A stretch of 64,000 bases of DNA from NCBI GenBank assembly GCA_965215195.1, contig CBDCDC010000002.1:2784001-2848000 (forward strand), given 5' to 3'. Positions 22,497 to 26,589 of this stretch are shown here, piece by piece. The position numbers and the translations under genes were made by a program. Every line of letters begins with the position of its first letter. Within the stretch, counting starts at the first letter, position 1. The DNA comes from Candidatus Latescibacterota bacterium (lineage in GTDB: Bacteria > Latescibacterota > UBA2968 > UBA8231). The notes under the pieces were generated by a model that was not told the DNA's origin, searched no databases, and saw nothing but the letters and a program-made list of their open reading frames with translations.

Positions 22497-25400
22497 CTAA
22501 CCCACCGGCAGTCCGACAAAGAGCCGGCTGGACACGCTGCTCAGCGGCTCAACTTCGCCGCGCTCGGCCGCCCTAGCAAAGACTACGCCCGGCTGCGCGG
22601 CCCGAGCGGCCCGGCCCAAGACGTGATAATCGGCCCGGCCGGGCTGTTGGGCCGCTTCCCGCGCCTCGCTCCAGCCCTCGTTGGTGGCGGCCAGACCCCA
22701 CAAGGCACGCGGTGCCCGCACCTTGGCCTCCTCCACCGACAGGCCATCGCGCCAACAACCGCGCTGGGCGAACAAACTACCATCTTCCCGACAGATCAGC
22801 CCACCACCCACGTATTGGATCACCTGCTGTTGGTTGCCTCGCGCCCCCGATAGCGTCAACAGGGCTAGGGGCCCCAAGTCGTTGTCGGCGAAATCGGCCT
22901 GCTGGTAGAAAGCCGCCACTAACTCGTCGCTGTACATTTGCCACTCGTCCCCATGGACCTCTTTGGGTTGCTCTGGCCACTCCTTGCCCGAACCGAGGAA
23001 GGGGTTGAAGGAGGCCCCTGACTGCTTGCAGACCTCAAAGCCGCGCCGCGTCAGCCGGTCGAGTACATCCAGCGCTCGCTCCAAACCCTCGCGCTGCAGC
23101 ACCTGAGCGAGCAAGCGATTGAGATCGCGCTTGGTGAACAGCCGGCTGCCATCCACCGCCATTCCGGTCAGCCCCTCCACTTCGGCACGGCCTTCCTCCG
23201 TGCGACACAGCCGCGCCAAGCCCCATGTCATGCCGTGATAGTTGTCGGCCACGTAACGCCAGACATCCGCATCGCGCTGGATGTGTCCGGCCACCGACAG
23301 CGCGGTCTCGGCTTCGGCCTGGGCTTCCTCGGTGAGGGGCAAAAACACCTCGATGGAGTCGCCGTCGAAATCTAGCTCCATTAGTCGGCAAACGCGCGGA
23401 TGGACGCGCACTGCGGCCCCGGCCAAGCGCTGCGGGCGAAAGGCCACCACTGCGGTGGACATTGGGCCTTCGTCAACCAGCATCCGCTGGGCGCTGTACA
23501 GCAGCACCCACGAGCGCGCCATGATCGCGTCCAGAGCCTCAGTCGCCCGGGCCGAGCACCGCACCACTTCGTCGGCGCGACCTATCTCCCGCTCCACCTG
23601 AGGCCCGAACAAAGCCCAAGCCATTTCTTCGGGCAGGCCCACTTGGTCGAGATTCAGCTCAAATCCCGAGACGAGCGCGGCCCGGCCGCTAAACAGCGGT
23701 CTGGCCCGGAAGTGAAGGTGGTCCGGGCGCAACAACGCGGCGAAAAAATCCGCCACCCGCTGGGCCACTCGGGCCATTGCCGGTCCGACTAGGGGCTCCG
23801 GGGCCTCGCTGTCAACGACGCGCTGCAAGCGCGTATTGGCTTCGACCAAATCCTCGAAGCAGCCTCGGATTGGGTCGAACTCGGTTTCCGCGGGCAAAGC
23901 GACGGGAGCGCCCACCGTCCCCACTTGGCGTCCCGGAGCCCACGGGTGCGGCACGGGCTGGGCTAGGGTCAGCCCCTCGGGCTCGGCAAAGGAGAAGCGC
24001 AACGTTGCACTCGCTAACTCGGCTCGTATCCCGGCCATACCCAACAACTGCTGTAACAAGGCAAAGCGCGGGGATGGTGGGGGAGACGGGGATATTGGGC
24101 CAGAGGTCAAGTGCTGGCCCAGCGCATGGGCGTCGGCCCGCTCGGCCGCGGCCGTGTTGAACAAAGCGTGGATATTGGCTACGGCCCCGGCCTCGCACAA
24201 CGCTCCGTAGGCCATCATGTCGAGCTCTGGTCCGCCGACTCCTGCGACCGCAGTTTCCAAGCGCTCGGCCGCGGTGTGGGTGCGGCCCCAGTACACCCAA
24301 CCCACAGTGCTGCGATAGGGCAGCTTTGCGCCTTGGAGGGTCAGTTGCTCCATGCCGTCTCGGGGCAGTCCCGCCGCCGCCAGACGCGCTTTTAACGTCT
24401 CTTCGCTGGGTGCTCGAAAAGGCGGCACCACGGCCGGAGTCCCTTCGGCTTGGGCGAGGCGGCCCATGACTGCCTCGCGCTGTTGGCCGAAATTGAGCCG
24501 CGAGATCATACTGGTAGGACTGAAAATGAGTTCTAGCGGTGCCCCATCGGGCAACTGCGGCATATCGGCGTCGGGCAGGATGCGCGTCACCACCCCTTTG
24601 GCGCCGTGGCGGTTGCTCATGCGGTCGCCCACTCCCACTGCGGCGGGAAAATCCATCCGCGCCGCGGCCGATTCGCTGATGACCAAGCCATCCTCAAACG
24701 TGTCTCCGTCCCACATGATGAAGGCGGTCAGCAGATTGTAGCCACCCCAAAAGTCGGGGGCTTCGGGCTCGTACCCGGTCTGTACTAGGGCTGGCTCGGG
24801 TTTGTTGCCCTTGGAGGCCAAGCGCTGATCGTACTGCTGGCGGAACCAGCCCGTGGAGTGGACCGGTGCCCCTGTAGCGGCCGCGCTCGTCCACTGGCGC
24901 ATCATATTGACGCCCATCAGGGCGCGATTGGTATCGTCGTGTTCGAGGAAGGGGACCATGGAGGCCGAAAAACCCAAAATGCTGTCGGGCGCTGGGTCGA
25001 TCCGTTCGAGCTTGCCGTCGCGGATGCGGGCCCCGCGGGCGACTTCGAGTACGCGGCCGATATTGGGTCCCTCGGGGGTGCAGTAGGGGCATACTAGGCC
25101 GTATTGGCTGTAGGGGAAAACGTCTTGGCTGTCAAAAGACGCGACGACCAGCCGCCGCAGATGGGTATAGCGGTCGAGCCAGTTGGTCGCCTGTAGGTAC
25201 TGCGAGGTTTCCTCCAAGTGGAAGTCGCGCATCCAAGCGTCTAGCGGCAGCCAGTTGTGCACCAAGTCGCCGTCCCAAGCCAACTGCTCGGGGGCCGCCT
25301 CCAACCTCTGGTCAATAAAATCGCAGAGCTGCTCGCCCACGCACAGAATTCGCGCTTGCTCGAGCTCGCGCCGGTCGGGATAGGGGACCACGATCCGGTA

Positions 25401-25637
25401 GTTGCCCTCAATGCGGAAAAGGCCATCGCGGTCGGGCCGCGGCAGGTCGCGGTACTCAACCTCGACCGAGGCGTCGCCGAGTCCCAAGCTCAGTTTAATG
25501 GAAAAAGTATAAGGGCCCTGTTGTTCGACTTGATAGTCGGCCAGCGGCAGGCGCTTACCCAAGAGCCGGGGCAGTCGCTGGTGGACGAAAAGGTCAAAGG
25601 ACTCCCTGTGCCAAGGTACGTCGAGATTCAATGTCAT
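22497..25637 (-). CDS. Miniaturised single-chain RNA polymerase beta-beta' fusion-like protein (1046 aa)
   Basis: Collinear RpoB motifs (SQYLQATNWLDRYTHLRR, YGLVCPYCTPEGPNIG, PFLEHDDTNRALMGVNMMRQ, FEDG, GDRMSNRHGAKG, SRLNFGQ) then RpoC motifs (SGRAAL..GLPEEMA, VHPRVC..DFDGD..VFLPLTEEAQAEA, SGARGN). Confidence 0.93.
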   Translation of the reverse strand: MTLNLDVPWHRESFDLFVHQRLPRLLGKRLPLADYQVEQQGPYTFSIKLSLGLGDASVEVEYRDLPRPDRDGLFRIEGNYRIVVPYPDRRELEQARILCVGEQLCDFIDQRLEAAPEQLAWDGDLVHNWLPLDAWMRDFHLEETSQYLQATNWLDRYTHLRRLVVASFDSQDVFPYSQYGLVCPYCTPEGPNIGRVLEVARGARIRDGKLERIDPAPDSILGFSASMVPFLEHDDTNRALMGVNMMRQWTSAAATGAPVHSTGWFRQQYDQRLASKGNKPEPALVQTGYEPEAPDFWGGYNLLTAFIMWDGDTFEDGLVISESAAARMDFPAAVGVGDRMSNRHGAKGVVTRILPDADMPQLPDGAPLELIFSPTSMISRLNFGQQREAVMGRLAQAEGTPAVVPPFRAPSEETLKARLAAAGLPRDGMEQLTLQGAKLPYRSTVGWVYWGRTHTAAERLETAVAGVGGPELDMMAYGALCEAGAVANIHALFNTAAAERADAHALGQHLTSGPISPSPPPSPRFALLQQLLGMAGIRAELASATLRFSFAEPEGLTLAQPVPHPWAPGRQVGTVGAPVALPAETEFDPIRGCFEDLVEANTRLQRVVDSEAPEPLVGPAMARVAQRVADFFAALLRPDHLHFRARPLFSGRAALVSGFELNLDQVGLPEEMAWALFGPQVEREIGRADEVVRCSARATEALDAIMARSWVLLYSAQRMLVDEGPMSTAVVAFRPQRLAGAAVRVHPRVCRLMELDFDGDSIEVFLPLTEEAQAEAETALSVAGHIQRDADVWRYVADNYHGMTWGLARLCRTEEGRAEVEGLTGMAVDGSRLFTKRDLNRLLAQVLQREGLERALDVLDRLTRRGFEVCKQSGASFNPFLGSGKEWPEQPKEVHGDEWQMYSDELVAAFYQQADFADNDLGPLALLTLSGARGNQQQVIQYVGGGLICREDGSLFAQRGCWRDGLSVEEAKVRAPRALWGLAATNEGWSEAREAAQQPGRADYHVLGRAARAAQPGVVFARAAERGEVEPLSSVSSRLFVGLPVG

Positions 25638-26258
25638 TCGCGTTCCTCCGGGTTATTAATAGCCTGCCAGGCTCGTGCGATCTGGCGGCGGCCGTGGTGC
25701 AGACGCGACTTTACAGTGCCTTCGGGAATGCCCAGTCGCTCGGCCGCGTCCCGCACTTCGACTTGGGCGTCGTAGATCAGACGGAAAACTTCGCGCTTGT
25801 CCTCGGACAACTCTTGTACTTGTCGCCGCAGCCAGCGCTGCTGGTCAGCCCATTCCACTTGGGCGTCGGGGTGCTCAGACGCAGCCTCAATCATCCACTC
25901 GGGCACTTGCTGCAATCATCCACTCGGGCACTTGCTGCGCCTCCTGCTGCACGGTTTCAGACAGCATTTCCAGCCGCTGCTCCCGCCGCCGCCGCACGGT
26001 GCGCAGGTGCGTCAGGGAAAGATGAGTGGCAATGCGGAACAGCCAGTTAGCCGCAGAGCCTCGACCGCTCCATTGGCCGGCCCGGTTCCACACTCGCAAG
26101 AAAACCTCCTGCACTACATCGTTAGCACTCGCATCGTCGCGGACGATGCAGCGCACGCGGTGGTGGACCTGCGCCCGATAGCGCTCAAAGAACTGCTCGA
26201 ATGCGCGTGCATCGCGTTCTTTTATTCGCGCTATGAGTTGTGGGTCCGGTATCTGCAT
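25634..26258 (-). pseudogene. ECF sigma-70 factor, frameshifted by a 25-bp tandem duplication (199 aa if one copy is removed)
   Basis: Region 2 (DVVQEVFLRVW...WLFRIA) in ORF 25887-26258; region 4 (AAERLGIPEGTVKSRLHHGR) in ORF 25634-25915; ATGA overlap with the RNAP-like gene. Confidence 0.9.
25888..25937. repeat. Exact 25-bp tandem duplication
   Basis: CAATCATCCACTCGGGCACTTGCTG at 25888-25912 and 25913-25937. Confidence 0.97.
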
Positions 26259-26277
26259 TGAGGCCCTCTGCAGATAA

Positions 26278-26304
26278 AGACGCCGCCCGGAAGGCATAGG
26301 TTCA
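26278..26304 (-). promoter_or_regulatory. Candidate ECF-type (autoregulatory) promoter
   Basis: TGAACC-N16-CGTCT on the minus strand, 19 nt upstream of the sigma ATG. Confidence 0.6.
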
Positions 26305-26418
26305 AGGACGAAGGTGAAAAAGCCCGCAAACCGCATTGGAGGCTGGCTTTGACTCACTAGTCGAGGGCGGTATCTTACCACCCATCGCCTCGGTGCTCTT
26401 GCGCCAGATCGAGACCCC

Positions 26419-26589
26419 ATGCGCCTAGGGCCAGCCCAACTCGACCAGTTTCACTGCGATGGCTACATCATCGTCCCCGACCTGTTCACTGCCTTAGCGG
26501 CGATGGAACAGGTTTTCTACGGCCAATCCTTCCAGTTGGAGCACACCCTACCCGGCATTGACACAGGCCCCTATCGCGATGAACGTTGA
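26419..26589 (+). pseudogene. Internally deleted PhyH-family remnant (56 aa)
   Basis: MRLGPAQLDQFHCDGYIIVPDLF is a PhyH-type N-terminus; catalytic core absent. Confidence 0.6.

Follow-up and report, generated by a model that had tools for sequence, protein, structure and literature searches.

The textbook view is of one bacterial RNA polymerase (RNAP) core that swaps sigma factors. Smaller relatives of this enzyme have been described from phages. YonO, encoded by the Bacillus prophage SPbeta, combines two barrels in a single chain of ∼ 100 kDa and shows no homology to the trigger loop; it acts as a processive DNA-dependent RNAP, as efficient as multisubunit RNAP, and has no known sigma factor and very distant similarity to the β and β′ subunits (PMC5467207). 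What the flap, lid, zipper, rudder and lobe do in multisubunit RNAPs is discussed in the same paper (PMC5467207). In the group 1 jumbo phages no sigma factor was found (PMC7824862). We have analysed a stretch of 64,000 nucleotides from a Candidatus Latescibacterota bacterium (assembly GCA_965215195.1, contig CBDCDC010000002.1, positions 2,784,001 to 2,848,000, forward strand; called the window below). It carries a two-gene module in which a gene for a sigma factor of the extracytoplasmic function (ECF) type is followed by a gene for a 1046-aa single-chain β–β′ protein, here called the mini-RNAP. The two proteins may form a dedicated holoenzyme.

The mini-RNAP and its sigma factor share with the canonical RNAP and ECF sigma factors the order of motifs (fork, NMxRQ, ED, RHGxKG, switch 2, DFDGD, SGARG, bridge helix), the clamp coiled-coil and a GAAC/GTC promoter. 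The canonical β and β′ amount to ∼ 2600 aa in two chains, whereas the mini-RNAP is one chain that lacks the lobes, flap, zinc domain, rudder and C-terminal half of β′. RpoBC fusions (2839–2890 profile positions) also join β head-to-tail with β′, but at full length; they replace the cell's only rpoB and rpoC, while the mini-RNAP coexists with canonical genes. Like YonO, the mini-RNAP carries both barrels in a single polypeptide and lacks a trigger loop. Unlike YonO, it is plainly derived from β/β′ (7.5e-73), chromosomal and sigma-linked. In fold searches, with no direct comparison to the YonO sequence, no YonO-like protein appeared among the top hits of the mini-RNAP model. The phiKZ-type, crAss-like and tape-measure-fused P23-45 phage RNAPs resemble it as reduced or rearranged β/β′ homologues that transcribe without the full set of cellular subunits, but these are viral and either multi-piece or fused to virion proteins. 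ECF sigma/anti-sigma pairs have the same autoregulated operon, with the sigma gene first and a coupled partner directly after it. Here, in contrast, the partner is a polymerase homologue, five times the size of the sigma factor and without an anti-sigma domain. The duplicated rpoB paralogues of actinomycetes such as Nonomuraea likewise place a second polymerase-subunit gene beside the housekeeping one. Those paralogues are full-length β subunits that assemble into a normal core, unlike a fused minimal chain with its own sigma factor.

Word searches of the available literature returned no published description of an ECF sigma factor paired with a reduced, fused β–β′ protein. The main text of the ECF re-classification (PMC7826278) does not mention Rpb, RpoB, RpoC, a β-subunit, an RNA polymerase subunit or Latescibacteria, and its gene-neighbourhood supplements may bear on novelty. 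Among two-barrel RNAPs, what sets the mini-RNAP apart is the combination of bacterial origin, chromosomal location, minimal size, a single chain and coupling to a sigma factor.

A trimmed β joined to a trimmed β′

The mini-RNAP gene occupies positions 22497–25637 of the window on the minus strand, as do all features of the module given below, and is supported by an uninterrupted open reading frame (ORF), Pfam and NCBIfam matches, homologues and an AlphaFold2 (AF2) model. An earlier note on this DNA, made from the letters alone, had described an unbroken 1046-aa ORF with RpoB motifs followed by RpoC motifs. The reading frame and the order of the Pfam matches agree with that description: RNA_pol_Rpb2_3 at aa 146–205 (4e-7), RNA_pol_Rpb2_6 at aa 335–452 (5e-29) and RNA_pol_Rpb1_2 at aa 729–780 (2e-11). 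The Pfam scan gave no other family and no recognisable anti-sigma domain. The NCBIfam models for rpoB (TIGR02013, 157.2 bits against a cut-off of 801.15) and rpoC (TIGR02386, 84.7 against 963.5) match in part, and fused rpoBC models of the NF007172/NF011417 types gave 147.8 bits against 5372 and 137.3 against 4632. The host genome (6.13 Mb, two contigs) also holds the separate canonical rpoB and rpoC for which the earlier note had proposed a search: they lie next to each other at C2:1964675-1972476, ∼ 840 kb from the window, and score 1803 and 1765 bits with the same NCBIfam models. The start codon of the mini-RNAP gene overlaps the stop codon of the sigma gene (ATGA at 25634–25637; TGA at 25634–25636), and a GGAGGA ribosome-binding site (25644–25649) stands 6 nt 5′ of the ATG. 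Both features had been read correctly by the earlier note.

Profile alignments and residue conservation divide the protein in two. The β-derived half (aa 1–541; 24015–25637) comprises a family-specific N-terminus (aa 1–125), the fork, the NMMRQ and FED motifs, the barrel and a C-terminal anchor. The β′-derived half (aa 542–1046; 22497–24014) comprises short N-terminal strands, the clamp coiled-coil, switch 2, the barrel, a helical domain, the SGARG loop, the bridge helix and a short tail. A family profile built from 65 aligned members (down to 44% identity) matched β chains in the PDB at 7.5e-73 and β′ chains at 3.6e-48. We aligned this profile with the subunits of the host itself, the reference including a 1251-aa reading of RpoB. 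On the β side, profile positions 131–203 correspond to β 434–518 (fork), 209–263 to β 588–642, 286–321 to β 727–762 and 330–544 to β 1015–1246 (barrel to C-terminus). The β half ends where canonical β ends and the β′ half follows directly: positions 583–772 correspond to β′ 248–473 (clamp helices, switch 2 and the barrel with the catalytic triad), 798–862 to β′ 543–607 and 881–983 to β′ 651–762 (SGARG loop and bridge helix). Most of β 1–433, most of β′ 1–247 (including the Cys cluster at residue 52) and β′ 763–1351 have no counterpart; β 763–1014 is replaced by ∼ 8 residues, and a gap of ∼ 25 residues lies between the clamp helices and switch 2. Going by E. coli and Thermus structures, we take β 1–433 to have held the lobes, β 763–1014 the flap, β′ 1–247 the zinc-binding domain together with zipper and lid, the gap the rudder, and β′ 763–1351 the half with trigger loop and jaw. 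The insert of the β barrel, the flap, binds sigma in cellular enzymes (PMC7824862). The N-terminal 125 aa of the mini-RNAP have no significant match to β (one stretch, i-Evalue ∼ 500). Speculatively, the helix there, in which W9 and H10 are invariant, might stand in for the tip of the flap.

The fork domain (aa 146–205; 25023–25202), placed by Pfam Rpb2_3 and by alignment to the canonical β fork segment, aligns to the region that presumably forms the rifampicin pocket. Within it N152 and R161 are invariant and H159 and R162 nearly so. The clamp coiled-coil (aa 585–635; 23733–23885) appears in the model as two long helices, H585–609 and H614–635, and aligns to the clamp-helix stretch of β′, which in canonical RNAP is where sigma region 2 docks. 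N601, R603, P613, L616, L624 and L635 in this element are nearly invariant, as are the switch-2 residues F649, S650 and G651. Catalytic and nucleic-acid-binding residues are conserved too. Four residues (E189, G190, R343 and G345) are kept in all 65 sequences. R247, Q248 and D758 are kept in 64, N244 and H344 in 63, D316 in 62, D760 in 61, D756 in 60 and K347 in 58. The RHGAKG motif of the β double-psi barrel (aa 343–348; 24594–24611) supplies the basic catalytic residues, and the DFDGD motif (aa 756–760; 23358–23372) the metal-binding triad, both assigned from residue conservation. Among 174 full-length members the triad reads DDD in 157. The residue before the triad, which in canonical enzymes reads the sugar of the incoming nucleoside triphosphate, is variable: 32 of the 65 sequences have N, 17 have E and 15 have D.

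An isosteric change of aspartate to asparagine at the first or third aspartate was seen in L024, L025 and L035 (Poribacteria) and in P0054, P0058, P0064 and P0068. These genes are full length, sigma-linked and under purifying selection, and NMxRQ carries an R-to-C change as well in two of the Poribacteria loci.

The AF2 model, computed from the 65-sequence alignment, is compact, with a mean predicted local distance difference test (pLDDT) score of 91.7 and a predicted template modelling score of 0.89. It has two long helices within 585–635 and a 29-residue helix at 968–996, the predicted bridge helix (22650–22736); the stretch from SGARG to this helix aligns weakly to β′. The best PDB fold matches of the model are bacterial and plastid β/β′ chains (8ras_C, 3.7e-22), and matches in a viral fold library are weaker (1.4e-17). 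The mini-RNAP is only 23–30% identical to the host's own β and β′, and the family is therefore old rather than a recent copy. The earlier note had called the protein clearly derived from the bacterial enzyme; the kinship with β/β′ is clear, but a recent derivative it is not.

A conserved family linked to one sigma factor

A homologue search with the mini-RNAP scored 8000 candidates, 1624 of them at E ≤ 0.001. The best 120 of these are almost all 1000–1074 aa long, with coverage of 99–100% and identities from 98% down to 43%. Names were given for nine of the best 120 (hypothetical protein in eight, an empty entry in one), and the named records are metagenome-assembled genomes (MAGs) from Latescibacteria, Hydrogenedentes, Chloroflexi, Armatimonadetes and a Gemmatimonadota-labelled group. 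An exhaustive search of 50%-identity representatives gave 325 proteins at E ≤ 1e-30. The first ∼ 140 are full-length members (∼ 945–1100 aa, 37–52% identity) or fragments, and proteins of 2240–2309 aa follow only after the family members, from 6e-57. No longer or fused form of 1832–5000 aa was found at E ≤ 1e-60, which is weak evidence, and no fusion of sigma and mini-RNAP was seen among the best 120 or 150 hits. In the ESM Atlas two clusters of the mini-RNAP type have 73 and 135 members, mostly from Chloroflexota where taxa are recorded. The same resource holds further single-chain clusters with fused Rpb2_6 and Rpb1_2 domains (1221–1787 aa, feature scores 0.85–0.92, no taxa recorded), which are leads only; the automatic name of one such cluster includes inorganic pyrophosphatase.

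With one genome taken per species, 36 loci were found, in Latescibacterota, Poribacteria, Anaerolineae, Chloroflexia, Capsulimonas and one further bacterium. Within the phylum of the window 66 of 168 genomes carry the mini-RNAP (E ≤ 1e-80), as do 19 of the 52 high-quality ones and 21 of 30 in its own genus; this patchy distribution marks it as an accessory gene. Identities are discordant with taxonomy, since genera of the same family share 44–47%, another family 52% and other phyla 40–45%, which is a hint, not proof, of horizontal transfer. Selection on the gene is purifying: the median ratio of non-synonymous to synonymous substitution rates (dN/dS) is 0.163 (range 0.126–0.206; 171 pairs from 19 coding sequences), far from the value near 1 that the earlier note had associated with decay. 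On these sequence comparisons the mini-RNAP is a conserved family, not a decaying copy. Two further observations concern copy number and integrity. In G071 (same class, 8.4 Mb) the mini protein has two matches, at C1:1427408-1430581 and C1:3369203-3371734, so that the module may be duplicated there. In two Chloroflexia MAGs (L031 and L036) matches to the mini gene are spread over two or three frames; such frameshifts may reflect true decay or assembly indel errors.

The upstream gene codes for an ECF sigma factor that has only regions 2 and 4. Directly 5′ of the mini gene, with both halves matched in a single frame, it is present in 33 of the 36 loci, across four or more phyla. Homologues with the same deletions, which the earlier note had asked for together with a sigma linkage, exist in several phyla. 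The ATGA overlap of the two genes recurs in the clade of the window, in Capsulimonas and in Chloroflexia. At L034, one of the loci where the sigma gene was not matched, the contig ends there. When 15 loci were compared all-against-all, distant loci shared the sigma–mini pair alone, and neither a third conserved gene nor an anti-sigma candidate was found across them. The sigma orthologue is single and adjoins the mini gene in four of five carrier genomes (the fifth is that of L018, described below), and was not found at E ≤ 1e-15 in any of four same-genus genomes without the mini gene. Intact orthologues are 199 aa long in all 17 close loci, with a median dN/dS of 0.117 (136 pairs). The linker between the two regions is kept, P111 and W113 being nearly invariant in 70 sequences. 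A conserved linker is unusual among ECF sigma factors, and it suggests a dedicated contact.

In the window itself the sigma gene is split. The 5′ part (25887–26258; Pfam Sigma70_r2, 2.4e-14) encodes region 2 and the linker and runs into a premature stop; its open frame spans 25887–26420, and alignment with the 199-aa orthologues places the true start at 26258. The 3′ part (25634–25915; Sigma70_r4_2, 5e-14) encodes region 4. Against the sigma70-ECF model TIGR02937 the two halves score 51.2 and 46.1 bits (cut-off 42.9). The split is due to a perfect tandem duplication of 25 bp (25889–25938) within the conserved linker motif, which causes a +1 frameshift; orthologues have a single copy and one frame. 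Contigs from all four public runs compared (three studies) lack exactly 25 bases at this site, and the nearest of them differs from the window by only two further letters over 1232 bases. These runs were compared as contigs, and the best-matching one may be that of the source sample. The absence of the duplication from all four points to an error in the assembly, or to a rare variant found in this assembly alone, rather than a property of the lineage, and the break in the sigma gene is probably assembly-specific. Single-base differences at 25556 and 25781 also separate the window from all four runs. The assembly perhaps contains consensus errors, or it may stem from a rare strain.

A conserved block stands 5′ of the sigma gene in the window and 17 close loci: TGAACC, a 15-nt spacer and GCGTC (GAGTC in one locus), then TTTA, ending ∼ 20 nt 5′ of the start codon. 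From this conservation we assign a putative ECF-type promoter to 26277–26304, with TGAAC at 26300–26304, a 16-nt spacer and GCGTC at 26279–26283. Transcription is predicted to begin ∼ 7 nt 3′ of GCGTC. The earlier note had ended its feature at 26304; this is not the end of a gene but the −35 end of the promoter. Read by eye, TGAAC-N16-G[C/T]GTC stands 5′ of the sigma gene in 12 of 14 distant loci as well; L021 has the GAGTC variant, and nothing of the kind was seen in L027 and L032. Over all loci read, the promoter stands 5′ of sigma in 30 of 31. We take this pattern to be the classic ECF promoter layout. In the genome of the window the strict motif has two hits, the operon's own promoter and C2:2621738, which looks intragenic. 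An intergenic TGAAC-N16-GCGTC at C2:4348827-4348852, in an AT-rich spacer 96 nt 5′ of a 281-aa sigma-70-family gene, was considered as a target and rejected: the block is nearly identical in G133, a genome of the same genus without the module (two wrongly oriented rows of this alignment carry no information). The site is conserved in relatives whether or not they carry the module, and is thus probably served by another ECF sigma factor.

Holoenzyme, mimic or independent polymerase

We propose that the sigma factor and the mini-RNAP form a dedicated two-protein holoenzyme, and put the probability of this at roughly 0.42. The module is a conserved chromosomal two-gene unit, driven on this model by the ECF-type promoter TGAAC-N16-GCGTC. 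Its first gene encodes the 199-aa ECF sigma factor of regions 2 and 4, and the second, translationally coupled, a trimmed β joined head-to-tail to a trimmed β′. The mini-RNAP retains all that is needed for holding a DNA–RNA hybrid and adding nucleotides (fork, NMxRQ, ED, both double-psi barrels, switch 2, SGARG loop and bridge helix). The two proteins would pair as a holoenzyme of ∼ 140 kDa, with sigma region 2 seated on the retained clamp helices. This holoenzyme would transcribe from TGAAC/GTC-type promoters independently of the main polymerase, much as YonO manages without trigger loop, lid, rudder or flap. The broader picture, to which we give slightly less than an even chance, is of a second self-contained transcription machine in some free-living and sponge-associated bacteria. 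It would stand beside the main enzyme with a minimal β–β′ core, a dedicated ECF sigma factor and its own promoter class, and would do without alpha, omega, flap and trigger loop. Binding, catalysis and use of the promoter by the mini-RNAP rather than by the host core are what we infer here; the anatomy, conservation, linkage, promoter motif and purifying selection are the observations.

A holoenzyme would explain why the clamp helices and the active site have been kept, why the two genes strictly co-occur and why they are translationally coupled. The clamp coiled-coil survives although neighbouring elements have been deleted, and its retention and conservation are the strongest indirect argument for sigma binding. 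We also predicted the complex from residues 1–800 of the L001 mini protein and the L001 sigma factor, with alignments of our own supplied and the C-terminal 250 residues left out. The median interaction score (ipSAE) was 0.49 (runs of 0.53, 0.48 and 0.49), compared with 0.00 for the best of three controls. Contacts are shared between the runs to at least 33%, and the partner has a pLDDT of at least 64. Of 80 solved complexes 58 come up to the ipSAE mark used, as do 2 of 110 mismatched pairs; at or below 0.60 lie only 7 of the 80 solved complexes, plus both of the passing mismatches. Sigma–RNAP complexes have already been solved, and the score may reflect likeness to them.

Several points weigh against a holoenzyme. 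The predicted complex has a weak score, and the prediction gave no interface. With the flap gone, sigma region 4 is left without a known anchor. In the normal core the flap–clamp geometry sets the spacing of ECF promoters, and the canonical spacing has been kept in spite of the lost flap, which is simpler to understand if the sigma factor works on the host core. The holoenzyme reading must assume a new anchor for sigma region 4 and further targets. In the window's genome and five other carrier genomes the search yielded no target except the promoter of the operon itself. The promoter pattern gave 52 hits in the genome of the window against 78 for a backwards control, and in the five other genomes all 15 hits besides the five sigma promoters fall within open frames of at least 150 aa. 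The pairing of the genes is also imperfect within the genus. L012 (genome G143) has an intact 1047-aa mini gene without a sigma gene, and in L018 (G146) a deletion takes most of the sigma gene together with 93 codons from the start of the mini gene; a search at E ≤ 1e-15 found no sigma orthologue elsewhere in either genome. Finally, parts of the active centre are not constant. The middle of the bridge helix is unconserved, with a pLDDT of 69–81 around residues 990–1000, and at least one triad aspartate is missing in 17 of the 174 full-length members (NDD in eight, DDN in four, and SDD, YDD, DAD, GSQ and GGL once each). When the triad states are counted by the Fitch method on a FastTree phylogeny rooted at its midpoint, eight changes result. 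The Poribacteria loci with NFDGD retain the sigma gene and the promoter, at a dN/dS of 0.18–0.21; they are under selection, so the canonical triad is not needed for the selected function in those lineages.

The earlier note had offered two readings, a dedicated minimal RNAP and an RNAP mimic acting on its sigma factor. These remain the two leading explanations, and the evidence does not decide between them. According to the second, which we regard as doubtful but a serious contender, the sigma factor works with the normal core, and the mini protein captures it on the clamp helices as a feedback decoy or holding site. A ligand or nucleic acid in the vestigial cleft might control its release, and catalysis would be secondary or dispensable. 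The mini gene indeed occupies the usual position of an anti-sigma gene, directly 3′ of the sigma gene with translational coupling between the two, and the loci compared hold no other conserved anti-sigma candidate, although Pfam finds no anti-sigma domain in the protein. A sigma factor that serves the host core would explain the canonical promoter geometry in a system whose polymerase has lost its flap, and a feedback loop would suit a motif carried only by the operon's own promoter. The retention of the clamp helices amid deleted neighbours and the weak predicted support for binding fit a holding site too. The triad has been lost about eight times, mostly by isosteric D-to-N changes, while selection and sigma linkage persist, as expected of a mimic; yet all three aspartates stand in 157 of 174 members. 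The basic barrel residues, NMxRQ, ED and switch 2 are likewise nearly invariant at 40–50% identity, which is hard to square with a pure binding protein. A chain of 1046 aa is costly for binding a 199-aa sigma factor, and in G143 the mini gene stays intact with no sigma orthologue to bind.

That last genome would be explained if the sigma factor is a switch only. It would turn the operon on together with the host core, and the mini protein would be an effector polymerase that works independently of sigma. Such an effector might serve special templates: it could make RNA without a promoter on damaged or single-stranded DNA, act in priming, or copy RNA templates as the related RNA-dependent RNA polymerase branch does. 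The conserved active-site core fits this proposal, as do the loss of all elements that handle promoters and RNA exit (flap, zinc domain, rudder), the lack of a regulon beyond the operon and the variable residue (N/E/D) before the triad. It leaves unexplained, however, the conserved clamp coiled-coil, the joint gain and loss of the sigma and mini genes and the conserved sigma linker. It does not name the input signal for the sigma factor, and triad losses under continued selection oppose any purely catalytic role. We consider it unlikely.

It is very improbable that the mini-RNAP belongs to a mobile element, such as a phage or plasmid, whose integration at this site is a matter of chance. The known single-chain two-barrel polymerases are mostly viral, and both the patchy distribution (66 of 168 genomes of the phylum, 21 of 30 of the genus) and the discordance of identities with taxonomy, which suggests transfer, would suit such an origin. 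The surroundings argue otherwise: no phage or mobile genes were found among the flanking genes tested in the window, and none is conserved across the 15 loci. Genomes have a single chromosomal copy, in differing neighbourhoods, and the best fold matches are cellular. PADLOC 2.0 assigned no family to the mini protein and gave one marginal hit (0.0011) for the sigma helix-turn-helix, and PHROGs returned generic RNAP and sigma families only. A decaying paralogue or an assembly artefact is scarcely credible: the frameshifted sigma gene of the window, the 56-aa remnant of a divergent PhyH-like gene upstream and the damaged relatives (the L018 deletion, the L031 and L036 frameshifts) are outweighed by a mini frame intact in the window and 18 close loci, a dN/dS of 0.16, the same architecture across phyla, a confidently predicted fold and the absence of the sigma duplication from all four runs.

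Surroundings of the module and its meaning

The genes flanking the module in the window are ordinary metabolic ones (PhyH, GFO/IDH/MocA, AstE/AspA and methyltransferases). As the earlier note had observed, neither rplKAJL nor phage genes lie near the module among the flanking genes tested. A terminator scan 3′ of the mini-RNAP stop codon gave nothing convincing. Divergent from the sigma gene, on the plus strand at 26419–26589, lies the PhyH-like remnant, which consists of the ∼ 39 first and ∼ 17 last residues of a 318-aa protein found at L001:4257-5213. The large internal in-frame deletion looks real, since contigs of runs X1 and X2 cross the region without gaps.

The module contains a polymerase core at 40% of the normal size that is conserved across phyla, and as a natural experiment it would define the smallest part of β/β′ that still folds. 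If active, it would show what still transcribes and reads a sigma factor, and would bear on the build-up of multisubunit RNAPs from a core of two barrels. It would also be a compact, sigma-programmable polymerase for synthetic biology, which we would expect to be insensitive to many of the factors and drugs whose action depends on the missing domains. If instead the mini-RNAP is a mimic, it would represent a new class of sigma regulator built from the polymerase itself. With triad aspartates lost repeatedly under continued selection, the family illustrates well how an enzyme turns into a binding protein. The fused clusters of the ESM Atlas (1200–1800 aa) hint at a wider, undescribed range of reduced polymerases.

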